Assembly (NCBI GenBank): GCA_021734685.1 | Contig: JAIPIL010000001.1 | Coordinates: forward strand, 1 to 49,621 | Origin: Minisyncoccota bacterium | Lineage (GTDB): Bacteria > Patescibacteriota > Minisyncoccia > Minisyncoccales > PWPS01 | Reading direction: 5' to 3' | Length of the DNA stretch: 49,621 bases | Shown here: positions 2,241-38,192 of the stretch, one piece after another | Position numbering within the stretch: position 1 is the stretch's first letter | Layout of the letters: every line of letters begins with the position of its first letter | Program-made: the position numbers and the translations under genes | The notes under the pieces: model-generated | What the model saw: only the letters and a program-made list of their open reading frames with translations | Told to the model about the DNA's origin: nothing | The model's database searches: none

Positions 2241-2268
2241 CTGGATTCCCGCTTTCGCGGGAATGACA
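2241..2268. repeat. Conserved intergenic hairpin element CTGGATTCCCGC-loop-GCGGGAATGACA (family copy)
   Basis: 8-bp stem attcccgc/gcgggaat with invariant flanks ctgg...gaca. Nine or more copies occur in the window. Confidence 0.8.
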
Positions 2269-2276
2269 AGGGGTTT

Positions 2277-2305
2277 GGCACAGGTCGGACCTGTGCCATT
2301 TTTTT
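2277..2305. terminator. Invariant palindrome GGCACAGGTCGGACCTGTGCC + T-run (copy 1 of 3), intrinsic-terminator-like
   Basis: 10-bp GC-rich stem followed by T7. Near-identical copies at 21417..21446 and 24427..24464. Confidence 0.6.
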
Positions 2306-2323
2306 GTGTTTCTTTTGGAAGCG

Positions 2324-2352
2324 TTGCGTTTTGGGTTTTAATTATGTATAAT
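2324..2352 (+). promoter_or_regulatory. Candidate sigma70-type promoter for tRNA-Arg/recG (TTGCGT-17-TATAAT)
   Basis: -35 TTGCGT at 2324..2329, 17-nt spacer, -10 TATAAT at 2347..2352, 18 nt upstream of the tRNA 5' end. Confidence 0.4.
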
Positions 2353-2370
2353 ATGGTTGTTTTATAGGGA

Positions 2371-2444
2371 GCACCCGTAGTTCAACTGGATAGAACGTCA
2401 GATTGCGGATCTGGAGGTTGCAGGTTCAAGTCCTGCCGGGTGCA
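2371..2444 (+). tRNA. tRNA-Arg (anticodon GCG as read by hand)
   Basis: Acceptor gcacccg/cgggtgc, D-arm gttc..gaac, anticodon stem tcaga/tctgg with loop ttGCGga, T-loop GGTTCAAGTCC. Confidence 0.65.
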
Positions 2445-2448
2445 CACG

Positions 2449-4557
2449 ATGAACTTCTCTACTTCTGTTTTAGAAATCTCTGGAGTTGGCCCAGCCAACA
2501 AGAAGAAATTGGAAAAGCTAAAGATAAAAACTGTTGGCGATCTTTTGTTTTATTTTCCGCGCCGATATGAAAACTTTTCTCAAAAAAGTTCTGTTGCTTC
2601 AATCTATAACAAGGGAAAATACACTATTGAAGGAAAGGTTATTAAGACAAATACTGATGTGACGATCGGGAGGAGAATTGCTATTTTTGAAATAATTATA
2701 AAAGACGAAACGGGAGAGATAAAAGCTGTTTGGTTTAATCAACCCTATTTAAAAGAAAAGATAAAAGAAGGAGATGAGATTGTTCTTTCGGGAGCAGTTA
2801 ATTTTTCTAAAGACGGCTTACAATTTTCAAATCCTTTTTTCCGAAAGCTAAACTCTGATGAAGATGCTTTTGATATAATCTCTATATACTCCGAACAAGG
2901 AGCAGTCACCTCTTCTTTTCTCCGTTCTGTTATTAAGAAAGCTCTCTCTGGGATAAACATTCAAAACAAGGAAACCCTCCCTGTCGAAGTTGTTAAAAAA
3001 AATAACCTTCTTTCTTTATCAAAGGCACTAAACGAAGTTCACTTTCCGTCTTCAACTAACAGTCTAAAGAAAGCAAAGAGAAGATTTTCTTTTGAAAGAA
3101 TCTTTCTTCTCCAACTTTTCATACTAGAGCAGAAGATCGCCATCTCTAAGAAAAAGGGGGTTCCTGTTCCAGTTGATATTGAAAAAGTTAAAGATCTTGT
3201 TGACGGCCTTCCGTTTACCTTGACCGATGCTCAAAAAAAGGCGTCTTGGCAGATTCTTAAAGATATAGAGAAAAACACTCCGATGAACCGTCTTCTTGAG
3301 GGAGATGTTGGTTCTGGAAAGACGATTGTTGCAACAATCGCTTCTCTCGCGGTAATAAAAGCTGGTTATCAGGTTGCGCTGATGGCTCCAACGGAAGTTC
3401 TCTCAAGGCAACACTTTGATGAGATAGCAAAACTACTCTGGCGTTTCAAGATTGATATCGGTCTTCTTACCGGAAAAAAAGATAAGATAAGGTCAAAAAG
3501 ATTAAAGGGAGATACTTTTGAAGTCTCCAGGGAAAAGCTTCAAGAAAAAGTGGAAGAAGGAAAGGTGGACCTGTTGGTGGGAACTCACACCTTAATACAA
3601 GACAAAGTGAAGTTTAAAAATCTTGCTCTTGTTATTGTTGATGAACAACAAAGATTTGGGGTAGAACAGCGAGCAAAACTGTGCTTAAAAAAAGATTCTT
3701 TTATTCCTCACCTCCTCTCAATGACTGCAACTCCGATCCCAAGAACCCTTGCCCTTACCCTTTACGGCGATCTTGATCTCTCGGTTATTGATGAGATGCC
3801 CGAAGAAAGAAAACCGATAATAACTGAGCTGGTCTCTCCCAAAAAAAGAGAGGATGCTTACCTGAAGATAAAAGAAGAGATAAAGAAAGGAAGGCAGTGC
3901 TTTTTCATCTGTCCGCGGATTGAAGATCCTGACAAAAAACCTGCTGATGGAAAAAAATCACCGTGGGCAAACTTGAAATCAGTTGAAAAAGAGAAAGAGA
4001 GGCTTGCAACAGAAGTTTTTCCAGAATTTAAAGTTGAAGGGCTACACGGAAAGATGAAGAACTCTGAGAAAGAGAAAGTGATGAAAGATTTCAGAGATAA
4101 AAAGATAGATCTTCTTGTTTCAACTTCTGTTATAGAAGTCGGGGTTGATGTTAAAAACGCAAGCATAATGGTCATTGAGGGCGCGGAGATGTTTGGCTTA
4201 TCACAACTTCACCAGTTTCGGGGAAGAGTTGGAAGAAGTGATATTCAGTCATACTGCTTTTTGTTTACAAGTTCGTGGAACGAGAAGATAAAACAACGAT
4301 TAAAAGCACTTTTAACTTCAAAAAACGGATTTGAGTTAGCAGAAAAAGATCTTGAGATAAGAGGCCCCGGTGATTTTATCGGGAAAAAGCAGTGGGGGTA
4401 TGATGACTTCACGATGAAAGCCTTGAAAGATCCTGTCTTGGTTGAGAGTGCGAGAGAAACAGCGAAAGATATTCTTGAGGAAGATCCCGGTTTAAAGAAA
4501 AACTCTCTTTTGAGAAAGAGAGTTGATCTACTAAAGAGAAAGATACATCTTGAGTAG
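2449..4557 (+). CDS. recG: ATP-dependent DNA helicase RecG
   Basis: N-terminal wedge/OB domain, helicase motif I GDVGSGKT and motif II VDEQQRFG, C-terminal helicase domain. Start set to ATG 2449, because the GTG at 2440 overlaps the tRNA. Confidence 0.85.
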   Translation: MNFSTSVLEISGVGPANKKKLEKLKIKTVGDLLFYFPRRYENFSQKSSVASIYNKGKYTIEGKVIKTNTDVTIGRRIAIFEIIIKDETGEIKAVWFNQPYLKEKIKEGDEIVLSGAVNFSKDGLQFSNPFFRKLNSDEDAFDIISIYSEQGAVTSSFLRSVIKKALSGINIQNKETLPVEVVKKNNLLSLSKALNEVHFPSSTNSLKKAKRRFSFERIFLLQLFILEQKIAISKKKGVPVPVDIEKVKDLVDGLPFTLTDAQKKASWQILKDIEKNTPMNRLLEGDVGSGKTIVATIASLAVIKAGYQVALMAPTEVLSRQHFDEIAKLLWRFKIDIGLLTGKKDKIRSKRLKGDTFEVSREKLQEKVEEGKVDLLVGTHTLIQDKVKFKNLALVIVDEQQRFGVEQRAKLCLKKDSFIPHLLSMTATPIPRTLALTLYGDLDLSVIDEMPEERKPIITELVSPKKREDAYLKIKEEIKKGRQCFFICPRIEDPDKKPADGKKSPWANLKSVEKEKERLATEVFPEFKVEGLHGKMKNSEKEKVMKDFRDKKIDLLVSTSVIEVGVDVKNASIMVIEGAEMFGLSQLHQFRGRVGRSDIQSYCFLFTSSWNEKIKQRLKALLTSKNGFELAEKDLEIRGPGDFIGKKQWGYDDFTMKALKDPVLVESARETAKDILEEDPGLKKNSLLRKRVDLLKRKIHLE

Positions 4558-4565
4558 ATTAAATG

Positions 4566-4640
4566 TGACCCCAAGGGGATTTGAACCCCTGTTACTAGGA
4601 TGAAAACCTAGCGTCCTAGACCAAGCTAGACGATGGGGCC
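4566..4640 (-). tRNA. tRNA-Glu (anticodon TTC)
   Basis: Strong resemblance to canonical tRNA-Glu (GGCCCCATCGTCTAG...TTTTCAT...GGGGTTCAAATCCCC). Confidence 0.8.
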
Positions 4641-4714
4641 GTCAGCTTCCAAAAATGCGTTACTATTTTAATATAAATTACTAAAAAAAACAAGAGGGAG
4701 GGAGAAATCCAAAA

Positions 4715-4742
4715 CTGGATTCCCGCTTTCGCGGGAATGACA
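4715..4742. repeat. Conserved intergenic hairpin element (CTGGATTCCCGCTTTCGCGGGAATGACA)
   Basis: Identical to the copy at 2241..2268. Confidence 0.8.
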
Positions 4743-4909
4743 AAGGAGGGGGAAGGAATGACACTCCGTCGTCATTGCGAGGGCTTTAGCCCGTGGCAAT
4801 CTCTCGTGGACTGCAAGAATGATGAGATTCTTCAGTCGCTTCGCTCCTTCAGAATGACGGGGAAGAAAGTCAAAGGTCAATTGTCAAAGGTTAACTATCA
4901 AAACAAACT

Positions 4910-6043
4910 ATGATTATTTTAGCTGTTGAAACTTCTTGTGATGATACTGGGATTGCTTTGTTGAAGAAAGACAAAGGGAAAGTTGAGACTATTGCCAGTG
5001 TTGTTTCGTCACAGAATGAAGTTCATGAAAAGTGGGGAGGGGTTTATCCTTCCGAAGCAAAAAGGGAACATCAGAAAAATCTTATCCCAGCTTTGACTGG
5101 TGTTCTTAAAAAAAGTAATTTTCTTGAAGAGGGAGAAACGCCTGAACACCCTGAGATAGAAAACATCTTATGGAGAGAGACCACCCTTCTCTCTAACTTA
5201 AAAGATTTTTTGAAAAAATATCGTGTTAAAAAGATTGATGCTATCGCAGTTACTGTCGGACCCGGACTAGATCCTTGTTTGTGGGTTGGAGTTAACTTTG
5301 CAAGAGCTTTTTCTCTGTGCTTGGATCTTCCTATTGTCCCCGTTAATCACATAAAGGCACACATCTCTTTCTTTCTTTTTTCCGATAAAAATGTTGCTTT
5401 TCCAGTGGTTACTCTTATTGCAAGCGGAGGGCACACAGAACTTGTTCTGATGAAAGATATTAACTCTTATCAGGTTCTTGGAAGAACAAGAGATGATGCT
5501 GCGGGAGAGTGCTTTGACAAATCGGCAAGAGTTCTTGGACTTGGATATCCGGGAGGACCAAAGATCGCAGCTGAAGCTGCTAAATTTTCAATTTCCAATT
5601 CTCAATTTTCAATTAAACTGCCTCGGCCGATGAAGTATTCTGATGATTATGATTTTAGCTTCTCAGGGCTTAAAACTGCTGTTTTGTATGATTACCGCTC
5701 AAGAGATAAAGAAACGCAACAGAACAAAGAATACATCGCTTTAATGGCAAAAGAAGTTGAAGAATCAGTAACTGATGTTTTAATCTTCAAACTTGAAAAA
5801 GCAGTAAAAGAGCATAACGCAAAAACGGTAATTATCGGAGGAGGAGTTACAGCAAACAAGACTCTTCAAGAAAAAGCAAAAGAGATGACTTTGAAATTTG
5901 AAGGAGTTGAACTTCTCACTCCTTCAGTTAATCTTGCGACAGATAATGCAGAGATGATAGGTGCAACGGCGTTTATGTCAAAAGAGAGAAAAAACTACAA
6001 AGAAGTTGAGGCAAAGCCCAACTTAAAGATCTCCGATAATTAG
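4910..6043 (+). CDS. tsaD: tRNA N6-adenosine threonylcarbamoyltransferase TsaD (Kae1/YgjD family)
   Basis: N-terminal ILAVETSCDDTGIAL and an ASGGH..L metal-binding region. At 377 aa it is somewhat longer than typical, with insertions. Confidence 0.8.
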   Translation: MIILAVETSCDDTGIALLKKDKGKVETIASVVSSQNEVHEKWGGVYPSEAKREHQKNLIPALTGVLKKSNFLEEGETPEHPEIENILWRETTLLSNLKDFLKKYRVKKIDAIAVTVGPGLDPCLWVGVNFARAFSLCLDLPIVPVNHIKAHISFFLFSDKNVAFPVVTLIASGGHTELVLMKDINSYQVLGRTRDDAAGECFDKSARVLGLGYPGGPKIAAEAAKFSISNSQFSIKLPRPMKYSDDYDFSFSGLKTAVLYDYRSRDKETQQNKEYIALMAKEVEESVTDVLIFKLEKAVKEHNAKTVIIGGGVTANKTLQEKAKEMTLKFEGVELLTPSVNLATDNAEMIGATAFMSKERKNYKEVEAKPNLKISDN

Positions 6044-6179
6044 AGAGACTACTTTTCTATTTTTTTAACCATCTCAATAATTTGTTTTCTAAATAAAACG
6101 AAGGTAAGAATGGTTAAAAGGAGAGGGATGAGGATGTAGGTTGTGAACATCTTTATTAATTTTGAATTTTGAATTTTTT

Positions 6180-6208
6180 CTGGATTCCCAGTCAAGCTGG
6201 GAATGACA
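6180..6208. repeat. Conserved intergenic hairpin element (loop variant AGTCAAGCT), flanked by TTTTGAA and GTCAAA heptamer arrays
   Basis: Identical to the copy at 28280..28308. Confidence 0.8.
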
Positions 6209-6261
6209 AGCGGGGGAAAGTCAAAAGTTAAATGTCAAATGTCAATTGTTTTCAGGAATTT

Positions 6262-6642
6262 TTATAGTTCTATTTTTCTTTTCTTTTCTTTTTCTATTTT
6301 TGGGACTTCTATTGTTAGGATGGAGTCTTTTATGTCTGCTTTTATCTGTGATGGATCAAAGTCTTCGGGCATAATTACTTCTCTTCTGAAGTCACCAAAG
6401 TAGCACTCTTGAGTATAGAAGTTTTTCACTTCATCATCTCTTTTTGGGCACTCGCGGTGTCCTTTAATAACAATTGTGTCTTTTTCAGTAACAACTTCTA
6501 TGTCCTCTTTTTTTACTCCTGCAACTGGCGCTTGAATCACAATGTTCTTCTCGGTTTCGTATATATCAACAGCGAGTTCTCCTTCTTTTTTAAACCACGA
6601 CTTCTCTTCATTTTTTTTATCTTCTTTATTTTTTTTAGGCAT
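6262..6642 (-). CDS. Hsp20/alpha-crystallin family small heat-shock protein
   Basis: Alpha-crystallin domain pattern (AVDIYETEKNIVIQAPVAGVKKEDIEV...). The start is the ATG at 6642 (MPKKNKED). The longer ORF in the track would overlap tRNA-Leu. Confidence 0.75.
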   Translation of the reverse strand: MPKKNKEDKKNEEKSWFKKEGELAVDIYETEKNIVIQAPVAGVKKEDIEVVTEKDTIVIKGHRECPKRDDEVKNFYTQECYFGDFRREVIMPEDFDPSQIKADIKDSILTIEVPKIEKEKKRKIEL

Positions 6643-12950: not shown

Positions 12951-13229
12951 CTAAGAAACATCAATTTTGATCTTAGCACCAAGTGCTCTAGCAACTTTAT
13001 TTAAAAAAGATAGAGATGGATTATATTTTCCTGACTCAAGACGAGCTATAGCTGACTGCTTAGTTCCAATCTTTTCTGCAATATCTTTCTGTGTTAATCC
13101 TTTTTTAATTCTTTTTTCTATAAGCAAGCGAACCAATTCAAACTCAAAACCTATTTCATCGTAATGACTCTTTACTTGCTTGTCTTTCAGTAGCTCTTTT
13201 TTGAAGCTTTTGAAACTTTTTGTTTTCAT
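12951..13229 (-). CDS. HTH XRE-family antitoxin (HigA-like)
   Basis: Cro/C1-type HTH (LTQKDIAEKIGTKQSAIARLESG). Sits immediately downstream of a RelE/gp49-like toxin gene. Confidence 0.7.
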   Translation of the reverse strand: MKTKSFKSFKKELLKDKQVKSHYDEIGFEFELVRLLIEKRIKKGLTQKDIAEKIGTKQSAIARLESGKYNPSLSFLNKVARALGAKIKIDVS

Positions 13230-13256
13230 TGTTCTAATAATAACATATATGTTATT

Positions 13257-13565
13257 TTAGTCAAGAAGCTTTATAATATTTTTCGCTCTTTCGATTTCTT
13301 TTCTTGGAATTTTGCGATCTTTTTTAACAAACCCGTGCAATAAAATAATTTGTTTTTTATGGAAAGTATAAATAATTCTAACTTCTTGAGCTCCTCTTAT
13401 TCTTAATTCAAAAATATCATTATCTATCTTTTTACTGTAAGGCATTCTAATTTCACTTCCAAACACCCCTAATAGTTCTATTGTACGAATCGTTTTTGCA
13501 ATAGTTTGTTTTTCTAGAGATTTTATAAATTTTTCTACAGATTTTTCAAAAAATCTAATTTCCAT
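13257..13565 (-). CDS. Type II toxin, RelE/ParE superfamily (HigB/gp49-like)
   Basis: About 100 aa, with EIRFFEKS...F.EL.. and a conserved C-terminal HGFVKK..K.P. Toxin-then-HTH order matches HigBA. Confidence 0.6.
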   Translation of the reverse strand: MEIRFFEKSVEKFIKSLEKQTIAKTIRTIELLGVFGSEIRMPYSKKIDNDIFELRIRGAQEVRIIYTFHKKQIILLHGFVKKDRKIPRKEIERAKNIIKLLD

Positions 13566-13707
13566 AAAAACTTATTTTTCCTAATTCAAAGAGGTTTGTT
13601 TCTTTCATTCCGTCAAGCTTTGATTGGATTCTCGATACACATCCGGATGTGTACACCAAGGATAATGGGATTGCCACGTCGCTTCGCTCCTCGCAATGAC
13701 GATAAAG

Positions 13708-13735
13708 TGTCATTCCCGCGAAAGCGGGAATCCAG
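13708..13735. repeat. Conserved intergenic hairpin element (inverted orientation: TGTCATTCCCGCGAAAGCGGGAATCCAG)
   Basis: Reverse complement of the CTGGATTCCCGC...GCGGGAATGACA family. Confidence 0.8.
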
Positions 13736-13799
13736 TTTCGCGTTGTTTTGCGTTTCAGTTTCGCGTTGTTTTGCGCGCTTCCTTTGGAAGCGTTATTTG

Positions 13800-13873
13800 T
13801 CTCCTCGGGAGGACTCGAACCTCCAACCTACTGCTTAGAAGGCAGTCGCTCTATCCGGTTGAGCTACGAGGAG
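13800..13873 (-). tRNA. tRNA-Arg (anticodon TCT)
   Basis: Acceptor ctcctcg/cgaggag, anticodon loop ctTCTaa, GGTTCGAGTCC T-loop. Confidence 0.75.
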
Positions 13874-13994: not shown

Positions 13995-14046
13995 ACTGGA
14001 TTCCCGCTGGAGTTTATCCTCGGCTACGATCGGGGGCGGGAATGAC
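13995..14046. repeat. Conserved intergenic hairpin element, long-loop variant (CTGGATTCCCGC-28 nt-GCGGGAATGACA)
   Basis: Same flanks and stem as the family, with an expanded loop. Confidence 0.7.
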
Positions 14047-14198
14047 AGAAAGAGTATGAATTTCCCGAGGTTCCCGAGGTCTCACCTCGGGAGTTTTCTC
14101 TCTAGATCGGATCTAGTAATTTTTGTTTTAAAATTCTTTCATTCTTTAATTTGAAATTTATTCGAAATTCAAAATTTAAAATTCAAAATTATCATATT

Positions 14199-16221: not shown

Positions 16222-16334
16222 TAATAGGTGGAATTATTTAAATTTTGTGATATAATTAGTGATGGTTAGTAATACTTAATCATTGATAATTGATTTTAGT
16301 CAAAGGTCACATGTCAAAGGTTAAATGTTATTTC

Positions 16335-16409
16335 GGGCGCATAGCTCAGCTTGGTAAGAGCGCTACTCTTATAAAGTAGAGGTCCCTGGTTCAAGTCCAG
16401 GTGCGCCCA
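16335..16409 (+). tRNA. tRNA-Ile (anticodon TAT)
   Basis: Acceptor gggcgca/tgcgccc, anticodon stem ctact/agtag with loop ctTATaa, GGTTCAAGTCC T-loop. Confidence 0.7.
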
Positions 16410-16454
16410 CAGTTTGTTTAATTTTGAATTTAGATTCCACCCGAAGGGTGTAAT

Positions 16455-17666: not shown

Positions 17667-17773
17667 CAAATTGACAGTTGACCTTTAACTTTTAACATTT
17701 AACTTGATTTCCGCTTCTGCGGAAATGATAAAAAGTAGTCAATAGTCAAATGTTAAATGTCAATTGTCATTAA

Positions 17774-23185: not shown

Positions 23186-23536
23186 CTATCCTTCAATCGC
23201 TTTCTTCTCTTCTTTTGATAAAGCATACTCAGAAGAACCTTTTTCTACTGGTTTTCCATAAATCCTATTACCGTCTTTTGTATAAAAGTTTGTGACAACT
23301 ACTCCGTTTTTCTCTTGATCTACAAAAGCAATAGAAAAACTTTGATTTCCTCCTTCTCCTGGAAACGGATTAAACCTTACTACTCCTGGCTTTTTTAAAT
23401 AAAGTTTTTCTCTCTTTTTCATTTCAATCAGTTCTTCTCTTATCTCTTTGTTTTCTTGTTCTATCTGTTTTAATTTTTCTAAAACTTCTCCAATGTCTTG
23501 AGGTTCTTCTTCTTGTTTCTTTTTGAAATTAAACAT
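23186..23536 (-). CDS. Hypothetical protein (N-terminal coiled coil)
   Basis: ORF with a charged heptad-like N-terminus. No motif recognized. Confidence 0.4.
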   Translation of the reverse strand: MFNFKKKQEEEPQDIGEVLEKLKQIEQENKEIREELIEMKKREKLYLKKPGVVRFNPFPGEGGNQSFSIAFVDQEKNGVVVTNFYTKDGNRIYGKPVEKGSSEYALSKEEKKAIEG

Positions 23537-23734: not shown

Positions 23735-23756
23735 AAAGCTCGCGCTCCGCGCGAGA

Positions 23757-23915
23757 AAATTTTCAATTTTCAATTTGACAATTTTCAATGAATGACCAAA
23801 TTTTTTAATGAATAAATTTTCAAAAATAATTTTACTTTATTTTATAAAAACTATAAGGTTTAGAAAATTAAGAAATTGAAAATTCATTGAAAATTGAAAA
23901 TTGCCAAATTGAAAA
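23757..23915. mobile_element. MITE-like element: ~40-bp terminal inverted repeats (AATTTTCAATTTTCAATTTGaCAATTTTCAATGAATGAC...) around a ~75-bp core
   Basis: Left arm 23757..23800 and right arm 23876..23915 are reverse complements. The same arms flank two other intergenic segments at 36642..36852 and 37488..37646. Confidence 0.5.
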
Positions 23916-23920
23916 CTATT

Positions 23921-24379
23921 TCACAACTTGTCAATTATATCACCATCACCTTGTATTATCAACCTTCTTCTTTTGTCGTCTTTGAACTCAAAGTGTATCT
24001 CGGCTGATTTTTCGGGAAGTGATTTTTTTATGTTTTCTCCCCACTCAACCACTACTATATTTTCTTCGTTGTTTATAATCTCTTGAAATCCTAATACTGA
24101 TAAATCTTTATCTTCTATCCGATAAGCATCAAAGTGATAGAGATATTTATTATTTTTTGTTTTGTATTTTTTAAAAACAAGAAAAGTAGGACTTGTTATG
24201 TTTTCTTCAACACCCACCCCTTCTGCAAATCCTTGTGTAAAAGTAGTTTTTCCTCCCCCCAGATCACCACTCAGAGATAAAAAAAACTTTTTTTGTTTTT
24301 CTATCACTTTTTTCCCCATCAAAAACCCTATCTTCTTCGTTTCTTCAGGAGAGTTTGTTACTACTTCTTTTTTAATCAT
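23921..24379 (-). CDS. tsaE: tRNA threonylcarbamoyladenosine biosynthesis protein TsaE
   Basis: P-loop LSGDLGGGKTTF and SPTF motif. Start is the ATG at 24379 (MIKKEV), because the longer track ORF runs through the terminator palindrome. Confidence 0.8.
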   Translation of the reverse strand: MIKKEVVTNSPEETKKIGFLMGKKVIEKQKKFFLSLSGDLGGGKTTFTQGFAEGVGVEENITSPTFLVFKKYKTKNNKYLYHFDAYRIEDKDLSVLGFQEIINNEENIVVVEWGENIKKSLPEKSAEIHFEFKDDKRRRLIIQGDGDIIDKL

Positions 24380-25826: not shown

Positions 25827-25855
25827 CCATGTCCATCCCCGGGTTAGACATGGGG
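25827..25855. repeat. REP-like palindrome, degenerate copy (CCATGTCCATCC-CCG-GGTTAGACATGGGG), overlapping the pilB stop codon
   Basis: Two mismatches in the arms relative to the consensus copies. Confidence 0.6.
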
Positions 25856-28214: not shown

Positions 28215-28402
28215 AAAATTACAAATTCCAAATTACAAATTCCAAATAAATTACAAATTCAAATATCCAAAACTACAAACTGGATTCCCAGTCAAGCTGG
28301 GAATGACAAGAGGGGCAAGGATTATAAGTTGTTGTTTTGAATTTTGAATTTTGGTTATTGGTGCTTATTTAGAATTTGTAATTTGTAATTTGTAATTTAA
28401 AA
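28215..28402. repeat. Composite intergenic repeat: AAATTAC heptamer arrays in inverted orientation on both sides of a central hairpin element (28280..28308)
   Basis: Left aaattacaaattccaaattacaaattcc... and right gaatttgtaatttgtaatttgtaattt are reverse complements. The central hairpin is identical to 6180..6208. Confidence 0.75.
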
Positions 28403-30759: not shown

Positions 30760-31878
30760 TTAGTTTTTTATAGGCATTATAATATAAAGAAAGTCTTCTT
30801 TATTTACTGGCCTTAAAATTCCTGGACTACTTTCGTTATTTATTTCAAAAACAACCTCTGAGTCTTTTATATTAGAAAGACCATCTAAAATAAATCTATA
30901 ATTAAAAGAGACACTAACACTCTCTCCCTCTGCTTTTCCTGATATTTTTGTTTCGTAATTACCTAACTCATTGTTGTTACTTTTAATAACAACTTCTTGT
31001 TTTTCAGAATCCACATCTAATATAACTTCATTTATTTTGCTTGTAAAAATACTTGATGCTTTTATTTTATTTAGGAATTCATCCTTATTTAATATTATTT
31101 TCGTTTTTAACTCTTTCGGAATAATACTTTGATAGTCTGGATAATTTCCTTCTATTATTTTTGATGTGAGCTCAATATGAGAGTGATTAAAATCATCCAT
31201 TTTTAATTTAAATAATATCTGATTATCTCCAAAAATAATTTCTATCTCTTTGTTTACTTCTTTAAAAATATTAACAACTTCTCTTGCTGTTCTCTGAGGA
31301 ATAATAACAGAAAAATCATCTATTTTTTCTTGTATTTTTATTTTCTTTTCAGCTAATCGGTAACTGTCAGTTGCTACTAAATATATTTTTTTATTTTTTA
31401 AAGAAAAAAGAACTCCTGATATTTCTGGTTTAACTTTAGACATTGAAGGAATGTCTATAATTTGCAATAATGCTTCGCATAAATCTTTACTATTTAAAAC
31501 TATTTTTTGTTTCTCTTCTGTTTTAGGAATAATTGGAAATTCTTCTACATCAACACCATTTATTTGTGTTTTATAATCATCACAGTCTAAAAGAATATTA
31601 TTATCTTTTGTTTTTAAGGTTATTTTCTTATTTGGAAGAAGATTAATAAAAGAAGAGAATGAATTATAAGGAATAACGACTTCTCCATGATCTTCTATTT
31701 TTCCTAATGTCCAATATTTTATTGCTATATCTAAATCAGTTGCTGAAAAGCTAATAAAATCATCTTCTGTTTTTATTAATATGTTTTTTAAAACAGGAAG
31801 TGATATTGATTTAGATGATGCTCTTCCGATAATACTTAATCCTTCTTTTAATTTATTTTGTAGTAAATTTATAATCAT
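30760..31878 (-). CDS. dnaN: DNA polymerase III beta sliding clamp
   Basis: Three-domain clamp pattern. Sits immediately downstream of dnaA on the same strand. Confidence 0.85.
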   Translation of the reverse strand: MIINLLQNKLKEGLSIIGRASSKSISLPVLKNILIKTEDDFISFSATDLDIAIKYWTLGKIEDHGEVVIPYNSFSSFINLLPNKKITLKTKDNNILLDCDDYKTQINGVDVEEFPIIPKTEEKQKIVLNSKDLCEALLQIIDIPSMSKVKPEISGVLFSLKNKKIYLVATDSYRLAEKKIKIQEKIDDFSVIIPQRTAREVVNIFKEVNKEIEIIFGDNQILFKLKMDDFNHSHIELTSKIIEGNYPDYQSIIPKELKTKIILNKDEFLNKIKASSIFTSKINEVILDVDSEKQEVVIKSNNNELGNYETKISGKAEGESVSVSFNYRFILDGLSNIKDSEVVFEINNESSPGILRPVNKEDFLYIIMPIKN

Positions 31879-32069
31879 AATATTAAATTAATTTATTAAC
31901 TAGTAGTTATTAGTACACTTGATAACTTGTAAATCCTTTTGTTTAAAGGGTTTTTTTATAAGGAAAAAAGATTAAAAAAGTGTTGAAAAGTGTTAAGTAA
32001 AAAAATCACCTGAATTTTAAATGTTTTTTTAACCTCTTTTCCACAACATCTTAACACCTCTACACTTCT

Positions 32070-33443
32070 TTACATTGAAAATAAACTTTCCCTTATGTGT
32101 GATATTTCTTCTTTTATCTCATTATTACTTTTTATCTCTCTCTCTATTTTAGAAAAAGAGTAAATTACTGTTGTATGATCTTTTCCGCCAATTTTTTTGC
32201 CAATATAAGGATAAGAGTAATTTAACTCTTTTCTTAAAAAGTATATTATAATCTGCCTTGACTTTGCAATTTCTTTTTTTCGGGAAGGGCCCATTATGTC
32301 TTTTTCATTAGTGTCATAAAAACTAGTAACTGCTTTTATAATTTTATCAAAAGAAAAATTAGACAAATTAGATTGGTTTATATTATTTAAAACAAGTTTT
32401 GCTGCTTCTATATTAATAGGTTTTTTTAATACCTGTTGATTAATTATTAATTTATTTAAAACTCCTTCAAGTTCTCTTATACTTCTTTGTATATTATCAG
32501 CAATAAAATAACAAACTTCGTCAGGAACATAGAAATCTTTCTCTTCAGCTTTTGTTTTTAAAATAGCTGCTCTTGTATCAGTATCAGGATTTCCAATGTC
32601 AACAATCATTCCTCCTTCAAATCTTGACCTTAGTCTGTCTGCTAAAGAACTAATAGATCGGGGTGGTCTATCAGAAGAAAGAATAATCTGTTTATTTTTT
32701 TCATATAAATTATTAAAAGTGTGAAAGAATTCTTCTTGTGTTTTTTCTTTATTAGAAAGAAATTGAATATCATCAATAATTAAAACATCAATATCTTTAT
32801 ATCTGTATTTAAAATCATCCATCTTGTTGTTTCTAATAGAAGATATTATTTCAGATATAAATTTTTGTGCTTGAACATAAAGAACTTTTTTTCCTTGAAA
32901 ATCATTTTTTATTTTATTTCCAATTGCTTGGATAAGGTGAGTTTTTCCTAGTCCAGTTTTACTGTAAATAAAAAAAGGATTATATAAAGATCCAGGATTT
33001 TCTGAAACAGCAGATCCTGCAGCATGAGCAAGTTCATTAAAAGGACCAACAACAAAATTATCAAAATTATATTTAGGATTTAACCCAGTTTCACTGTCAA
33101 TTGTCATTTCTGGAAATTCCATCTGGTTTTCAGAGTTTTCAACTTGTTTTTCATTAGAAGAGTTTTTATTATTAGAAACAGGAGGTAAAGAGTTGGGACT
33201 TATTATATATTCTATTTTTTTAATATTTTTATTTATCCTTTTTACTGTTTCTAGTATTTTTTTATGATATCTACTTTGAATCCAGTCTCTGACAAAGGTG
33301 CTTGGAACAGAAACGACAACTATGTCTTTTTTTATTTCAAAAATACTTGTGTTTTTAAACCAAGTGTTAAAACTTGCATCAGAAACATCAAGCTGAATTT
33401 CAGCAAGAACAGATTTCCAAAGATTTTCTTTTTCTATAAACAT
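32070..33443 (-). CDS. dnaA: Chromosomal replication initiator DnaA
   Basis: AAA+ Walker A GLGKTHL, Walker B, and a C-terminal DnaA-box binding domain. Confidence 0.9.
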   Translation of the reverse strand: MFIEKENLWKSVLAEIQLDVSDASFNTWFKNTSIFEIKKDIVVVSVPSTFVRDWIQSRYHKKILETVKRINKNIKKIEYIISPNSLPPVSNNKNSSNEKQVENSENQMEFPEMTIDSETGLNPKYNFDNFVVGPFNELAHAAGSAVSENPGSLYNPFFIYSKTGLGKTHLIQAIGNKIKNDFQGKKVLYVQAQKFISEIISSIRNNKMDDFKYRYKDIDVLIIDDIQFLSNKEKTQEEFFHTFNNLYEKNKQIILSSDRPPRSISSLADRLRSRFEGGMIVDIGNPDTDTRAAILKTKAEEKDFYVPDEVCYFIADNIQRSIRELEGVLNKLIINQQVLKKPINIEAAKLVLNNINQSNLSNFSFDKIIKAVTSFYDTNEKDIMGPSRKKEIAKSRQIIIYFLRKELNYSYPYIGKKIGGKDHTTVIYSFSKIEREIKSNNEIKEEISHIRESLFSM

Positions 33444-33597
33444 AAGGATATAAACTTAAAATTACTATATCATATTATAATTAATTGTGGAAAACTACTA
33501 AAATGGGAAAAAGTTGTGGATAACTTGTTAAAAATAACTAAAGATTGACTTATTTTACTATATAGAGTAATATATTGTTAAGTTAAAAGATAAATTT
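33444..33597. promoter_or_regulatory. Probable oriC (dnaA-rpmH intergenic region) with DnaA boxes and an AT-rich unwinding element
   Basis: Perfect DnaA box TGTGGATAA (= TTATCCACA) at about 33515..33523, a one-mismatch box TGTGGAAAA at 33486..33494, and an AT-rich stretch at 33451..33485. Another TTTTCCACA box lies at about 32036..32046 on the other side of dnaA. Confidence 0.6.
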
Positions 33598-33729
33598 ATG
33601 TTTTCCAGAGTACTTAAAAAAAGAAAAAGAAAAAAGACTCACGGATTTTTAGTTAGAAAAAGAACTAAAGGTGGGTGCAGTGTTCTAAAAAGAAGAATAA
33701 AGAAAGGAAGAAAAAAAATATCAGCATAG
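33598..33729 (+). CDS. rpmH: 50S ribosomal protein L34
   Basis: A 43-aa ORF that is not in the supplied track: MFSRVLKKRKRKKTHGFLVRKRTKGGCSVLKRRIKKGRKKISA. It matches the L34 pattern KRKR..THGF...G..VL.RRR.KGRK. Confidence 0.85.
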   Translation: MFSRVLKKRKRKKTHGFLVRKRTKGGCSVLKRRIKKGRKKISA

Positions 33730-33756
33730 ATTCTAATCTCTAAGATATTGTTTTTT

Positions 33757-34094
33757 ATGTTTCCTCAAAAAAATAGGTTACGAAAAAGAAAAGAGTTTGA
33801 GGATGTATTCAAAAAAGGAAAAACCTTTTTTGCTTCTTTTTTTTTGTAAAAATAAAAGAGAATAGTTTTAACTTCTCTAGATTTGCCTTTGTTGTTCCTA
33901 AAAAAGTAGAGAAAAAAGCAGTTGAAAGAAATAGAACAAAAAGAATGATGAGAGAAATTTTTAAAGAGTTTTCGGTTTGTTTTAATAGAAGTGTAGATTT
34001 GATTTTTATTACTCAAAAAAAAATAAATAAAGAAGATAGAGAAAAAGCAAAAAAGGAAGTAGAAAGAATTTTAAAAAAAGCAAAATTAATATGA
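33757..34094 (+). pseudogene. rnpA: RNase P protein component RnpA, interrupted by a frameshift at a T9 homopolymer (33837..33845)
   Basis: Frame 0 gives MFPQKNRLRKRKEFEDVFKKGKTFFASFFL then a stop at 33847. The -1 frame continues ...VKIKENSFNFSRFAFVVPKKVEKKAVERNRTKRMMREI...KLI to 34094. One extra T restores a full-length ~112-aa RnpA. Confidence 0.7.
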
Positions 34095-34786
34095 TAAGTT
34101 TCTTTTATACAACAATCTACCAACCGTTATTTAATTTAATGGTTTTTATTTATAATATCGTTCCTTATGCTGATTTAGGAGTAGTAGTTATTTTATTAAC
34201 AGTATTAATAAAAATACTTCTTTTTCCTTTAGGAGTTAAAGCAACAAAATCTCAAAAAGAGATGAATGAGATTCAACCAGAAATAAAGAAAATACAAAAA
34301 AAATACAAAGACGATAAAGAAGAGCAAGCAAAAAAAATTCTTGAGATATACAAAGAAAAAAAGATAAACCCTTTTTCAGGGATATTTGTTCTTCTTATTC
34401 AACTTCCAATTTTAATCTCTCTCTTCCAGATATTTAGAAAAGGAGTTGGCGAAGAAGAAATGAGTCAACTTTATAGTTTTGTCAGTAATCCTGGAGTAAT
34501 AGACACCACCTTTTTAAATATTATTGATATCTCTTCTCCTAATACTTTTCTAGCAATACTAGCAGCGGGAGGACAGTATTATCAGATGAAGATAAGCACC
34601 CAGACAGTGGAAGATAAGGGGAAAAAATCAGATACTGCCAAGATGATACAAAAACAGATGCTTTACTTCTTACCAGTATTCACTTTTATCATCCTCTTAA
34701 CAATTCCTTCTGCGGTTGGTCTCTACTGGATTGTAACAGTGCTTTTCTCTGTATTACAGTTCTATCTTGTAAAAAACAAAAAGTAA
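34091..34786 (+). CDS. yidC: Membrane protein insertase YidC (short form)
   Basis: Short YidC topology with the conserved INPFSG...LIQLPIL and ..G..WI motifs. Completes the rpmH-rnpA-yidC operon. Confidence 0.8.
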   Translation: MISFFYTTIYQPLFNLMVFIYNIVPYADLGVVVILLTVLIKILLFPLGVKATKSQKEMNEIQPEIKKIQKKYKDDKEEQAKKILEIYKEKKINPFSGIFVLLIQLPILISLFQIFRKGVGEEEMSQLYSFVSNPGVIDTTFLNIIDISSPNTFLAILAAGGQYYQMKISTQTVEDKGKKSDTAKMIQKQMLYFLPVFTFIILLTIPSAVGLYWIVTVLFSVLQFYLVKNKK

Positions 34787-34795
34787 CACTTGTTA

Positions 34796-34838
34796 TAAAA
34801 AAAGCATCGCGGACTCCGCCCCCGCGATGCTTTTTTTG
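34796..34838. terminator. Bidirectional intrinsic terminator (A6-gcatcgcgg-loop-ccgcgatgc-T7) between convergent yidC and the virB4-like gene
   Basis: 9-bp GC-rich stem with an A-run and a T-run. Confidence 0.7.
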
Positions 34839-34856
34839 TTTAATTTAGTGGTTTTA

Positions 34857-36641
34857 TTAGAAGCCTGTTTTTGCTTGTTTTATTTTTTGAAGTTCTTCTG
34901 GGGAAGAAGTTATTATCTGATCTTCTGCGTAAGAAGCAGTTATTCTTATTACCACATGTTTTTGTCCGGCAAAAAATATTCCTTCCCCAACTTCTCCCTC
35001 TAAAAGAGTTGATTTTTCTTCTCCAGTTAAATTGAAAGTTTCTTGAACAGTGTCTATAACTGCGGGAGATTGTTTAAGAAGTATTTTTAAAGCAGAGTTG
35101 TTAACAATTGGTTTTCCGTAACTTGAAGACATAAAATCAGAAACATCTTGAGTTATTGTAGATACTCCTAGCCAGTATTTTCTTGCTCTTTTAACTAATC
35201 CAAAAAGGAAAGAGGCTCCATCTTCGTGCTTCATCATTACCCACGCCTCATCAACAATAAACAATCTTTTCTTCATAGAAGAGGTTATTGTTTTCCAGAT
35301 GTAACGAGAAACAATAAACATTGCAATCGGTCGCATCTCATCTTCAAGGTCTCTTATTCCAAAAACAGTTATATTGTTATCCATTGTAACATTTGTGTAC
35401 TGGTTAAAAAATTCAGAATATGTTCCTTGGGTAAATTTTCCTAAACGAAGAACAAGATTTCTTGTTCCTTCCATTGAGTCTAAAACTTGCTCTAAATCAG
35501 AGAAGATAGGAATGTTTTTTTCCCAAGTAGAAGGGTCACTTTCAGGAGTTATATCTTTGGCAGCGTATGTTTCAGTGATTGCTTGGTCTATAATAGAATC
35601 TTCTTCAGGAGTAAGTCCTCCTAACATAATGCGGAGAAGACCAACAAGCCCGATAGTGTTTCTTCTTATAACTTCTGCAGGAGTTTCTCCTTCTACGGGG
35701 ACAGGAATATCAAAAGGATTAATATGATTATCAGAGCCGAGAGAAATATTAAAGAAAGATCCCCCAGCTGCTTCAGCAAGTGTTTTGTATTCGTTGTCAG
35801 GATCAATAATAATGACATCTATTCCACTCATCAAAGAACGAAGAGCTTCTAGCTTGACTAGATAAGATTTTCCACCTCCAGAAACGCCGAAGATGACAGA
35901 GTTTGCATTTTCCAGTGAGAATCTATCAAAAATAACAAGAGAGCGATTGCTTGCATTTATTCCGTATAAGATTCCATCATTAGAAGTGAGATCAAAAGAA
36001 ACAAAAGGAAAAATACTAGAAAGAGGTTCGGTATTCATTGGGGTTTTTGTGTTTACAAGGTCTATCCCAAACGGACAACTACTTATAAATCCTCCTGATT
36101 GTTGAAAAAGGGTTGGTCGGATGTAAACAGAACTTGATTCAAGAATTGATCGTAGGGTGTTCTCAATGTCTTCAGTTTCTTTTTCTGAATCACCAAAAAC
36201 AGTTATATAAAGACCTAACTGAAACATCTTCTCTTCAGCCATCTGTAAGCGATCTCTAAGTTCTTCCATGTCACCGTGAGCAGTTTCCAAAATAGGATCT
36301 CTTATATTTCCTTTTTCTCTTTTCTCCATTATTTCTGCTTGAGTAGCAGTTATCTGTTTTCTTAATTTTTTCAAAACATCACCAGTGTTTGCTGGGGTTA
36401 TGAAAAAAGATATATCTAACTGAGTATTAAGGTTTATAATAGAAGAAAGCCAACCAGCGTTTAAATAACGAGGATAAGAAAAAACAAAAAAAGAACGAGA
36501 GTATCTTTCTCCAAGCTTCAGATGTCCTTGTTTTTCATCAATAGAAGAAGGAGCGATAATATCAACAATTCTTAAAACACCATCGTCCTCCTCTTTCTTC
36601 TTTTTCCCAATTAAATTTTTAAAATCATCTATAAAAGACAT
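34857..36641 (-). CDS. VirB4/TrsE-family type IV secretion ATPase (ATPase domain)
   Basis: Walker A IFGVSGGGKS, Walker B RLFIVDEAW, C-terminal motifs, and the overall AAA_10/DUF87-like pattern of conjugal-transfer VirB4 proteins. Confidence 0.75.
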   Translation of the reverse strand: MSFIDDFKNLIGKKKKEEDDGVLRIVDIIAPSSIDEKQGHLKLGERYSRSFFVFSYPRYLNAGWLSSIINLNTQLDISFFITPANTGDVLKKLRKQITATQAEIMEKREKGNIRDPILETAHGDMEELRDRLQMAEEKMFQLGLYITVFGDSEKETEDIENTLRSILESSSVYIRPTLFQQSGGFISSCPFGIDLVNTKTPMNTEPLSSIFPFVSFDLTSNDGILYGINASNRSLVIFDRFSLENANSVIFGVSGGGKSYLVKLEALRSLMSGIDVIIIDPDNEYKTLAEAAGGSFFNISLGSDNHINPFDIPVPVEGETPAEVIRRNTIGLVGLLRIMLGGLTPEEDSIIDQAITETYAAKDITPESDPSTWEKNIPIFSDLEQVLDSMEGTRNLVLRLGKFTQGTYSEFFNQYTNVTMDNNITVFGIRDLEDEMRPIAMFIVSRYIWKTITSSMKKRLFIVDEAWVMMKHEDGASFLFGLVKRARKYWLGVSTITQDVSDFMSSSYGKPIVNNSALKILLKQSPAVIDTVQETFNLTGEEKSTLLEGEVGEGIFFAGQKHVVIRITASYAEDQIITSSPEELQKIKQAKTGF

Positions 36642-36852
36642 ATAATATAATTTTCAATTTTCAATTTGGCAATTTTCAATGAATGACTAAATGAAAAAAG
36701 CACCAAATCACAAGCATCAAATTCCAAATAAATTCAAAATCCTAAATTCAAAATTCAAAACAATCATTGTCATTCCCGCGAATGCGGGAATCCAGTTTTG
36801 GAAATTAAAAAATTGAAAATTCATTGAAAATTGAAAATTGCCAAATTGAAAA
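36642..36852. mobile_element. MITE-like element (same 40-bp inverted arms as 23757..23915), enclosing one copy of the CTGGATTCCCGC hairpin; directly abuts the virB4-like start codon
   Basis: Left arm 36649..36691, right arm 36813..36852, internal hairpin 36768..36795. The 51 bp at 36642..36692 are nearly identical to 37488..37538. Confidence 0.5.
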
Positions 36853-36860
36853 TTCTTTTG

Positions 36861-37487
36861 TTATCTTGTTAATTCTTCTGGGAATTCTGGGTAGTATCCT
36901 TTTTCGGCGCTTTTTGAGTGGAAGACTGACCAGAACAGTTCAATTATTTCAACAGTTGTTAGTGGGGCAGAGTGAAGGCCGCATCTTCTTAGCCCTAAGG
37001 CAACAAATTCCATTCTTTGGTAAAGCTGTCTTTTCCCACGGAGAAAACTGTCTTCAGTTATATCTTCTTCATCTCCTTTCTTCTTTCTTGAAAACTCAAC
37101 TCCTGATGAGTTGTAAGGAACAACAACAAAAAATCGTTTAGAATAGATGGATTCTTTTTCTATAAAATCTTCTAAAAATTGCCGATATCCAGCGGTTTGT
37201 TGTTGAAGAAGTTGATTGGTTTGTTTTTTTTCAATTTCTTTTATCTTTTCAATATATCCTGTAATGTTTGTTTTTCTTGACTGAACGACGATCTGACATG
37301 TGAAGTCAAGGGAATTTAGAAACGATTGGAAACGATCTATTATTGCTTTTTGTTCATCAGGGGATTTAAGAGCGATATTAACAGAAGAAACCATAAGAAT
37401 TCCTCTTATTCCTCCAGCACTTAAAATAACAGTACCTTCACGGATCTGCTTAATAGGGATAAAGTCTTGAGTGCTTTTAGTGGACAT
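36861..37487 (-). CDS. Cytoplasmic protein, possibly the detached N-terminal domain of VirB4
   Basis: 208 aa with no TM, beginning MSTKSTQDFIPIKQIREGTVILSAGGIRGIL, which resembles the N-terminal segment of Gram-positive-type VirB4 proteins. It sits between PrgI/VirB3-like and VirB4-ATPase genes. Confidence 0.35.
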   Translation of the reverse strand: MSTKSTQDFIPIKQIREGTVILSAGGIRGILMVSSVNIALKSPDEQKAIIDRFQSFLNSLDFTCQIVVQSRKTNITGYIEKIKEIEKKQTNQLLQQQTAGYRQFLEDFIEKESIYSKRFFVVVPYNSSGVEFSRKKKGDEEDITEDSFLRGKRQLYQRMEFVALGLRRCGLHSAPLTTVEIIELFWSVFHSKSAEKGYYPEFPEELTR

Positions 37488-37646
37488 ATAATATAATTTT
37501 CAATTTTCAATTTGGCAATTTTCAATGAATGACCAAATTTCCAAATAATTTAATTTTCAAAGATAATTTCCTTTATTAATGTTTATAAAATTAGGAAATT
37601 AAGAAATTGAAAATTCATTGAAAATTGAAAATTGCCAAATTGAAAA
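37488..37646. mobile_element. MITE-like element (third copy), filling the intergenic space between the PrgI-like gene and the 208-aa gene
   Basis: Left arm 37495..37538, right arm 37607..37646, in inverted orientation. Confidence 0.5.
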
Positions 37647-37649
37647 TTT

Positions 37650-38057
37650 TTATGCTGTTTCTATGAACTTGTTTACATCGCTTAATCTTCCTTTTGTTGC
37701 TTTTTTCTTTTTTTGCTTTACTACTGGTTCTTCTTTTTTTCTTTTGCTTGGTTGGTTAACTTTTATAATATAGTCTTTCTTTTTCCAAAGGTATCTTTTA
37801 TAGGAAGTACTGAAAAAAATAACTTTCTTTATATAACTTGGTAGTGGTTCTCCGTTTTTTTGAAAAAAAGCAAAAGCAATACCGACTGCTCCAACTAAAA
37901 AAGCAAGAGTGTAAAAAATTGGGGATGTTCCTCCAAAAACAACAAATAAAAGCAAAATAACAAAAGCGGCAACAGCAAGATATCCGAGTTGAGAAAAAGA
38001 AGCTGGCCCTAATATCTTTGCTTCTCTTTCAATATAATGAGGAACTTTGTAGCGCAT
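37650..38057 (-). CDS. PrgI/VirB3-like small membrane protein
   Basis: MRYKVPHYIEREAKILGPASFSQLGYLAVAAFVI followed by a second TM. This matches the PrgI-family pattern (basic N-terminus, ..E.KI.GP.T.RQ..YL, two TMs). Start is the ATG at 38057, because the track start is a TTG. Confidence 0.55.
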   Translation of the reverse strand: MRYKVPHYIEREAKILGPASFSQLGYLAVAAFVILLLFVVFGGTSPIFYTLAFLVGAVGIAFAFFQKNGEPLPSYIKKVIFFSTSYKRYLWKKKDYIIKVNQPSKRKKEEPVVKQKKKKATKGRLSDVNKFIETA

Positions 38058-38061
38058 AAAG

Positions 38062-38192
38062 ATATAGAAACATTTGACATTTAACAATTGACATTTGACT
38101 GTTGATATATATTCTGGATTCCCGCGTTCGCGGGAATGACAGTGGTTTCAATGGTCAATAGTCAAATGTCAACTGTCAATTACTATTCTATC
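38062..38192. repeat. Composite intergenic repeat: GTCAA-type heptamer arrays in inverted orientation flanking the hairpin element 38114..38141
   Basis: Left catttgacatttaacaattgacatttgactgttga, right ggtcaatagtcaaatgtcaactgtcaatt. The hairpin is CTGGATTCCCGCGTTCGCGGGAATGACA. Confidence 0.7.

Follow-up and report, generated by a model that had tools for sequence, protein, structure and literature searches.

Nine intergenic hairpins in a CPR/Patescibacteria-type genome match the NTS/dRS3 repeat of Neisseria

Hairpin copies and their genomic neighborhood

The window, by which we mean the whole 49.6-kb (49,621-nt) stretch of DNA analyzed here, contains nine copies of a 28-nt hairpin, TGTCATTCCCGC-loop-GCGGGAATCCAG, eight of them canonical and one diverged, in both orientations and at a density of about one per 5.5 kb. 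The plus strand shows CTGGATTCCC...GGGAATGACA at 2241, 4715, 6180, 13996, 28280 and 38114; the copies at 13708 and 36768 have the opposite orientation, and the diverged copy lies at 17703. The pattern ATTCCCGC-N(3-33)-GCGGGAAT is matched six times against 0.00 expected from 100 shuffles. The positions and the two orientations agree with those noted in an earlier, sequence-only reading of this DNA. All nine copies are located outside tRNA genes and Pfam-supported genes and are overlapped only by short, unsupported read-through ORFs, such as those at 4668-4880 and 13596-13838, which are spurious.

Five of the nine copies are found near tRNA genes. The copy at 2241-2268 (minus strand, with TGTCATTCCCGCGAAAGCGGGAATCCAG on the strand that carries the Neisseria Transformation Sequence, or NTS, discussed below) has the divergent genes for tRNA-Ser(gct) and tRNA-Arg(gcg) on either side, and its sequence is repeated at 4715-4742 (minus strand), in the spacer between the divergent tRNA-Glu and tsaD genes, and a truncated half-site, AGGAATGACA, comes after it at 4754-4763. 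The same sequence appears on the other strand at 13708-13735 (plus strand), between the start of higB and the 3' end of tRNA-Arg(tct). The copy at 13996-14047 (minus strand), in the tRNA-His/tRNA-Arg(cct) spacer, has a 28-nt loop insert, CCCCGATCGTAGCCGAGGATAAACTCCA; a long loop resembling this one is also present in a Saccharibacteria MAG. The diverged copy, TATCATTTCCGCAGAAGCGGAAATCAAG, at 17703-17730 (minus strand), retains a fully paired stem and lies in the tRNA-Leu/tRNA-Val spacer, at the center of a palindrome formed by heptamer arrays. The proximity to tRNA genes proposed earlier thus holds for these copies but does not amount to clear enrichment, because roughly one-third of the noncoding DNA, if not more, consists of tRNA-adjacent spacers.

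The remaining copies occupy other kinds of spacer. A variant at 6180-6208 (minus strand), whose stem is altered in a compensatory way to ATTCCCAG/CTGGGAAT and whose loop measures 5 nt, is located between the convergent tsaD and hsp20 genes, and an identical variant at 28280-28308 (minus strand) is found between yebC and ruvC, flanked by 65-nt inverted heptamer arms. The yebC-ruvC spacer is repeat-rich, and the short Logan contigs recovered with RuvC start inside it, 63 nt upstream of ruvC. The copy at 36768-36795 (plus strand; loop GAAT) is situated in the central part of one copy of a MITE-like element, and that at 38114-38141 (minus strand; loop GAAC) lies in the spacer separating a divergent prgI-like gene from an 848-aa ORF, at the center of inverted GTCAAAT-type arrays. 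The dnaA and dnaN genes occupy 30760-33443, which places the replication origin probably at about 33.5-34 kb.

The stem, described earlier as invariant, exists in three versions: the canonical one, ATTCCCAG/CTGGGAAT at 6180 and 28280, and ATTTCCGC/GCGGAAAT at 17703. Since pairing is preserved in all three, the changes are compensatory. Loops measure 4, 5 or 28 nt, within the range first given (4 to 28 nt), and identity including the loop extends beyond the single pair first noticed, to three copies (2241, 4715 and 13708) and a further two (6180 and 28280), which suggests recent spread or maintenance. Folded as single-stranded DNA with DNA parameters, all six copies tested form an 8-bp stem at -7.3 to -11 kcal/mol with z-scores of -2.9 to -6.0; individual values are -9.0 kcal/mol (z -4.0) at 2241, -7.3 kcal/mol at 6180, and -11 kcal/mol (z -6.0) at 13708.

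Correspondence with a published single-stranded DNA repeat

The NTS has been described as CGTCATTCCCGCGMAVGCGGGAATCYRG, a sequence that contains dRS3 and is one of the "Ssn-related motifs", or SRMs (Chenal et al. 2025, Nat Commun 16:2388, PMC11893778). Copies were assigned to the NTS/SRM group by the search rule of that study (at most one mismatch to CGTCATTCCCGCGMAVGCGGGAATCYRG) or by the degenerate SRM pattern. Four window copies, the 2241 copy with its single mismatch among them, differ from the consensus at position 1 only, and another has two mismatches. The dRS3 core (ATTCCC-N8-GGGAAT) and the SRM pattern fit five copies, including the one at 2241, and the other four are variants, namely two with a 9-nt spacer, the long-loop copy, and the diverged copy with its seven mismatches to NTS. 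The flanks GTC (5') and C (3') are present in eight of nine copies, with ATC and C in the diverged one. SRMs are rarely placed in genes, with 2% of NTS copies being intragenic (PMC11893778), and all nine window copies are intergenic. Judged by sequence, the window hairpins are the known NTS/dRS3 repeat, an ordinary instance in a new host of a motif that has already been described.

Comparison with the published systems supports this assignment and indicates where the window departs from them. The NTS/SRM repeats of Chenal et al. share the 28-nt sequence with its oriented flanks, the 8-bp hairpin, GMAV-type loops, intergenic placement, density, and tolerance of long loop inserts. Unlike those repeats, the window copies occur singly rather than as gene-flanking pairs, several are centered in heptamer-array palindromes, no ssn gene lies within the 49.6 kb, and the host appears to be of the CPR/Patescibacteria type, a group absent from the main text of PMC11893778. 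The dRS3/NIME repeats (Bentley et al. 2007, PMC1797815) have in common with the window the core found in five copies, an alternation of GC-rich hairpins with AT-rich repeat units, and mosaics with other small repeats, here at 4715-4860 and 13660-13735. However, the window copies are mostly kilobases apart, and heptamer arrays take the place of RS families as their AT-rich neighbors. Membership in dRS3/NIME arrays was rejected, as the window has no dRS3-RS-dRS3 arrays and two tRNA genes lie between its most closely spaced copies (13708 and 13996).

The published properties of the cognate enzyme give the conserved flanks a biochemical reading. SsnA is a 94-aa GIY-YIG nuclease that binds the NTS hairpin solely as single-stranded DNA and cuts just upstream, with no activity on RNA, on double-stranded DNA or on the opposite strand (PMC11893778). 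Binding depends most on the C that immediately follows the palindrome, and cleavage on the GTC that precedes it (PMC11893778); these are the unpaired flanks to which the sequence-only reading had drawn attention, and they are conserved in eight of the nine copies. That reading had proposed that a protein recognizes the hairpin or that it functions as a structured RNA. The protein alternative is upheld by the binding and cutting of this sequence by SsnA, and the RNA alternative is not: no Rfam family overlaps the hairpins, either at the gathering thresholds or at E<=1, where only tRNAs pass.

A role as transcription terminators, or as any other element acting at the RNA level, is highly improbable. 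A GC-rich stem with a GNRA-like loop would suit such a role, and one copy (2245-2264, minus strand) is flagged as terminator-like with a weak T-run, but the other eight main stems are unflagged, the hairpins that do have proper T-runs are of different sequence, orientation relative to neighboring genes is mixed, and SsnA does not act on RNA (PMC11893778). Plain terminators had been expected to sit only at the 3' ends of convergent genes and to lack conserved flanks, whereas three copies lie between divergent genes, and the motif and its flanks are identical across many phyla. We therefore reject the intrinsic terminator class, in line with the earlier view that these are not generic terminators. 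The main value of the assignment is for annotation, in that the hairpins should be labeled as NTS/SRM repeats rather than as terminators or small RNAs.

Distribution of the motif and the search for ssn

The exact 23-base motif was found in at least 120 genome stretches spanning many phyla, with numerous CPR MAGs among them, and viral contigs supply at least 120 stretches as well. This adds CPR/Patescibacteria MAGs and viral contigs to the known carriers of the exact NTS, which fits a horizontally moving Ssn-NTS unit. When the flanks of 157 copies drawn from many genomes were profiled, no conservation appeared outside the 28 nt except for a pyrimidine-rich tract at -10 to -1. This tract coincides with the region where Ssn cuts. 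When loci were anchored on the flanks only, 59 distinct inner sequences were recovered; 42 of these pair completely, and double-compensatory changes are seen, for instance TCCTGC/GCAGGA and CCCCGC/GCGGGG, so the covariation sought in the earlier reading is present. Neisseria SsnA loses activity on a hairpin of altered sequence and retained structure (PMC11893778), and the CAG/CTG and TTTCCGC stem variants may therefore be dead or need another enzyme.

A mechanism for such repeats has been published. [quoted passage not shown] To our knowledge, a biological role for NTS and Ssn has been demonstrated in Neisseria only. The ssn gene lies between two inverted NTS copies, an arrangement that resembles a small insertion sequence and probably accounts for the seeding and multiplication of the repeats. 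In the present genome, an Ssn nuclease may be encoded, at present or formerly, outside the 49.6-kb window, with the window copies serving as its substrates when DNA is taken up, transferred by conjugation or replicated. We place the probability that the nine hairpins are NTS/SRM copies with an Ssn of this kind at roughly three in four. If the organism has an ssn gene, the repeats could affect foreign-DNA uptake and recombination, which would be relevant to a lineage believed to live partly on DNA that it scavenges.

The window itself yielded no GIY-YIG/Ssn gene in a motif scan, tblastn with two Ssn proteins, an HMM search, or Pfam annotation of its ORFs; since it holds no ssn gene, cutting by Ssn in this genome is something we infer. 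The best tblastn match (E=0.007, 23423-23509) was rejected as a DUF4446 protein. Across 242 fetched loci, the HMM search recovered 11 Ssn-like ORFs, nine of them within 130 nt of an exact NTS, and Pfam classifies Ssn-like ORFs from these loci as GIY-YIG. The usual cassette in other genomes consists of an NTS, 5-15 nt, ssn, and an inverted NTS. None of the 15 motif-bearing CPR loci fetched contains an Ssn-like gene, and the only GIY-YIG gene in one of them (L092) is of a different type and 2.6 kb away. A PDB sequence search with an Ssn-like protein returned a weak UPF0213 match only. With ssn found neither in the window nor in these loci, it is conceivable, though doubtful, that some different protein services the repeats in CPR bacteria.

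The same absence of ssn favors an alternative in which the copies are inert selfish-DNA relics of ssn cassettes or MITE-like NTS pairs, with no current nuclease or host function. In CPR loci, two inverted NTS copies often face each other head to head across a gap of 10-25 nt, resembling empty cassettes that lack ssn, and the window includes one diverged copy and one truncated half-site. The yebC loci of 14 distant relatives (~78 kb), the only kind recovered by a metagenome scan with YebC (30-51% identity), contain no NTS-like motif and hence no readable insertion footprints, so the NTS load is lineage-specific. The relic reading is nevertheless unlikely, if still to be taken seriously: the identical copies speak for recent spread or maintenance, the stem variants show compensatory change instead of random decay, and ssnA is encoded by 81% of genomes with more than 200 SRMs and absent from 19% (PMC11893778). 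These SRM-rich genomes include Rickettsia and Wolbachia (PMC11893778).

Mobile elements, palindromes and companion hairpins

Several other kinds of mobile element resemble the window repeats in part. Filamentous prophages of Neisseria enter dRS3 by means of their own transposase (PMC1797815, PMC11893778), and dRS3 is thus a documented phage integration target. The motif is also common in viral contigs, and a large serine recombinase gene adjoins the 2241 copy, so the hairpins could be integration targets of phages or other mobile elements. We consider this very improbable, as the recombinase adjoins just one of nine copies, no IS110/Piv-type transposase is encoded in the window, and the hairpins are uninterrupted by inserted DNA.

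Another candidate is the Y1 (RAYT-like) transposase gene at 48916-49584, which resembles Y1_Tnp and REP-associated tyrosine transposases and might mobilize the copies as REP elements. REP/BIME-RAYT and IS200/IS605 TnpA systems, like NTS/Ssn, use oriented, strand-specific single-stranded DNA hairpins with a conserved 5' flank and have a nuclease gene flanked by its own hairpins (PMC11893778, discussion), whereas the enzyme fold is HUH-Y1 rather than GIY-YIG. In the window, however, the hairpin found at either end of the Y1 gene is another one, CCATGTCCAACC-CGGG-GGTTGGACATGG, and no NTS lies near the gene; REP/RAYT membership was rejected on this account and has a negligible probability. The CCATGTCCAACC-CGGG-GGTTGGACATGG hairpin recurs at 2043 and, in diverged form, at 25827.

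Miniature inverted-repeat elements of intracellular bacteria, of which Rickettsia palindromic repeats are an example, are a further point of comparison. The genome of a Rickettsia endosymbiont carries the exact motif as inverted pairs ~80-100 nt apart. The window copies, in contrast, are single hairpins, and MITE membership was rejected, given that neither a longer unit nor a target-site duplication was seen and that nothing is conserved beyond the 28 nt in the 157 copies or in the window. The MITE-like palindromic element mentioned above, with inverted arms of ~41 nt, has three copies, only one of which carries an NTS, in its central part.

The association with 7-bp arrays claimed earlier holds for seven of nine copies, but the arrays also fill intergenic regions free of the hairpin; the NTS is present in seven of ten array-bearing long spacers versus two of seven array-free ones, a sample too small to call enrichment. 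As a minor detail, four of nine copies are centered in long heptamer-array palindromes, between the inverted arms. Such copies might be footprints of a single-strand-targeted insertion with a preference for the tips of long palindromes, where the DNA is single-stranded. We regard this idea as speculative and doubtful; if true, it would provide the first positional clue to how the NTS spreads.

The NTS copies are accompanied by other small hairpins. One at 4770-4802 (plus strand), CGTCATTGC...GCAATCTC, has the same outer architecture as the NTS and is SRM-like in form only; the published SRM pattern does not fit it. A second, CGTCATTCTGAAGG...TGAAGAATCTC, at 4825-4859 (minus strand), is likewise SRM-like in form only and has a weak predicted fold, as does a third, CGTCATTGCGAGGAGCGAAGCGACGTGGCAATCCC, at 13668-13701 (minus strand), which adjoins the NTS at 13708. 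A literature search for the companion motif GTCATTGCGAG returned no relevant paper. The order of NTS plus companion at 13668-13735 is repeated at 4715-4802, and members of the companion family are also present in other phyla, at loci that carry the NTS.

A hairpin family matching a published ssDNA nuclease target

The proposed hairpin family is real: pattern searches of the window find all nine copies, in both orientations, and 0 matches to the two-arm pattern are expected in the shuffled window. On the strand starting with GTCATT, the NTS-like copies read TGTCATTCCCGC-loop-GCGGGAATCCAG and lie on the minus strand at 2241-2268, 4715-4742, 13996-14047 and 38114-38141, and on the plus strand at 13708-13735 and 36768-36795. 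Two mutually identical copies (6180-6208 and 28280-28308) carry the stem variant ATTCCCAG/CTGGGAAT, and a diverged copy (17703-17730) has the stem ATTTCCGC/GCGGAAAT. The sequence-only reading had called the stem invariant; three versions are present, each perfectly paired. The copies at 2241, 4715 and 13708 are identical, including the loop. As ssDNA, the 8-bp hairpin of the window copies folds at -7.3 to -11 kcal/mol, far below shuffled controls.

A full-text literature query with GTCATTCCCGC retrieved Chenal et al. 2025 (PMC11893778), who define the 28-nt Neisseria Transformation Sequence (NTS) as CGTCATTCCCGCGMAVGCGGGAATCYRG. The NTS encloses the older dRS3 repeat (ATTCCC-N8-GGGAAT), and the same paper describes a wider class, the Ssn-related motifs (SRM). 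Four window copies differ from the NTS at position 1 only and a fifth at two positions; dRS3 and the published SRM pattern both fit five copies. SsnA, a 94-aa single-domain GIY-YIG protein (cd10448), binds the hairpin as ssDNA only, on one strand only, and cuts a few nucleotides upstream; neither RNA nor dsDNA is a substrate (PMC11893778). Binding hinges on the C directly 3' of the palindrome and cleavage on the three bases 5' of it, while loop identity is dispensable and loop extension tolerated (PMC11893778). These recognition properties account for each of the conserved unpaired flanks, variable loops, occurrence in both orientations and lack of a link to gene ends. Both motif and mechanism are already published, and the earlier proposal of protein recognition was right; the minor novelty lies in a host that is probably CPR and in copies placed within palindromes. 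A search for RNA families gave no match at E<=1.

Distribution and the link to ssn

At least 120 genome stretches carry the 23-base motif exactly, as do at least 120 IMG/VR viral stretches. Hosts among the matches listed include Rickettsia, Cupriavidus, Massilia, Planctomycetota, Chloroflexota, Nitrospirota, Omnitrophota and cyanobacteria, along with ~15 CPR MAGs. An exact NTS also lies in a contig putatively binned as Nanoarchaeota (locus L028). NTS-like motifs are absent from the yebC loci of 14 distant relatives (~78 kb), and the NTS load is thus lineage-specific, as it is in Neisseria.

Searching 242 motif loci with a profile HMM trained on two adjacent GIY-YIG ORFs recovered 11 Ssn-like ORFs, with GIY-YIG confirmed by Pfam; nine of these lie <=130 nt from an exact NTS. 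The usual order (5'-NTS, 5-15 nt, ssn, short gap, inverted NTS-3') is that of the IS-like cassette of PMC11893778. Within the putative viral set (L123-L242), an Ssn-like gene adjoins an NTS in three loci (L140, L181 and L182). HMM and other sequence searches and Pfam find no Ssn or other GIY-YIG gene within the 49.6-kb window, and 0 of 15 motif-bearing CPR loci hold an Ssn-like gene. In many CPR loci, two NTS copies lie head to head at a distance of 10-25 nt and resemble emptied cassettes. Because of these absences and the emptied-looking cassettes, we can only infer that an Ssn from the same organism cleaves the window copies; ssnA is encoded by 81% of genomes with >200 SRMs (PMC11893778). 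The copies could instead be a recombinase target, as dRS3 is for Neisseria phages, but no such enzyme and no insertion are seen in the window.

Beyond the 28 nt, 157 copies show no conservation except a G-poor, pyrimidine-rich tract at -10..-1, also found upstream of several window copies (CCCCTCT, CCCCGCT). A flank-only anchor, GTCAT-N16-ATCYRG, returned 59 distinct inner sequences, 42 of them fully paired and many with double-compensatory stems; these stem variants were collected without selection, while the canonical-stem count is biased because loci were picked for having a canonical copy. The long-loop NTS at 13996-14047 (loop ending ...GAGGATAAACTCC) recurs nearly unchanged in a Saccharibacteria MAG (L059, 2872-2920), which suggests a distinct subfamily, not a random insertion.

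Palindromic surroundings of the copies

Further small repeats surround the NTS copies. Two mosaics (4715-4860 and 13660-13735) combine an NTS with hairpins that share its outer form, GTCATTGC...GCAATC and GTCATTCTGA...AGAATC. Loci from other phyla that carry an NTS contain both companion forms as well; these are SRM-like by form only, since they fall off the published pattern and fold weakly. A HigB-like (Gp49/DUF891) and HTH antitoxin pair (12951-13565) adjoins the second mosaic.

Most long spacers are filled with heptamer arrays (GTCAAAT, AAATTAC, AATTTTG), in many cases arranged as inverted arms (6158-6249, 16299-16328, 17669-17769, 28216-28398 and 38070-38181), and the copies at 17703, 28280, 36768 and 38114 lie between such arms. 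A MITE-like element of 170-220 nt, with inverted arms of ~41 nt made of AATTTTC-type heptamers, is present in three copies (23745-23925, 36635-36865 and 37483-37655), only one of which (36635-36865) contains an NTS, centrally placed. This placement fits NTS insertion into palindrome tips, in a small sample (four copies, one of three elements). GTCAAAT-type arrays repeat the -35-like hexamer TTGACA, and the MITE-like copies at 36635 and 37483 carry a promoter-like TTGCCA-17-TATATT in the left arm, directed toward the adjacent minus-strand gene. Similar AT-rich arrays stand beside NTS in other CPR MAGs, one at 55% G+C (L013).

Gene setting and neighboring elements

The window (~35% G+C, 18 tRNA genes) encodes recG, tsaD, gyrA, ftsH, infB, ruvABC, dnaA/dnaN and several T4SS-pilin, PrgI and VirB4-like proteins, a gene content suggestive of a CPR/Patescibacteria-type genome. 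All nine NTS copies fall outside tRNAs and Pfam-supported genes, and the ORFs overlapping them are short, unsupported and translate the repeats. Spacers between divergent genes hold three copies (2241, 4715 and 38114), a convergent spacer holds one (6180), and same-direction spacers hold five, in either orientation. A terminator reading was rejected: the single main stem called terminator-like has a weak T-run, and the window's true terminator-like hairpins are other sequences.

A second hairpin family, CCATGTCCAACC-CGGG-GGTTGGACATGG, occurs within 48861-49618 and at 2043-2069 and 25827-25853. Two of its hairpins enclose a 222-aa ORF (48916-49584) that matches Y1_Tnp (PF01797) and, below the model's cutoff, the REP-associated tyrosine transposase model, forming a REP-RAYT-REP-like unit. 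A REP/RAYT origin of the NTS copies was rejected, as this Y1 transposase-like protein has a different hairpin on both sides.

dnaN and dnaA lie beside spacers of 26-27% G+C, followed by yidC (30760-34090), and a replication origin is likely near 33.4-34.1 kb. A tRNA-Ile with anticodon UAU, for reading AUA and unusual in bacteria, is found at 16335-16410. Finally, a large serine recombinase ORF (385-2073) overlaps tRNA-Ser(tga) and the 2043-2069 hairpin in antisense, and a second tRNA-Ser adjoins it (region 1939-2164); the ORF may represent an element integrated at a tRNA gene, or may be over-extended.
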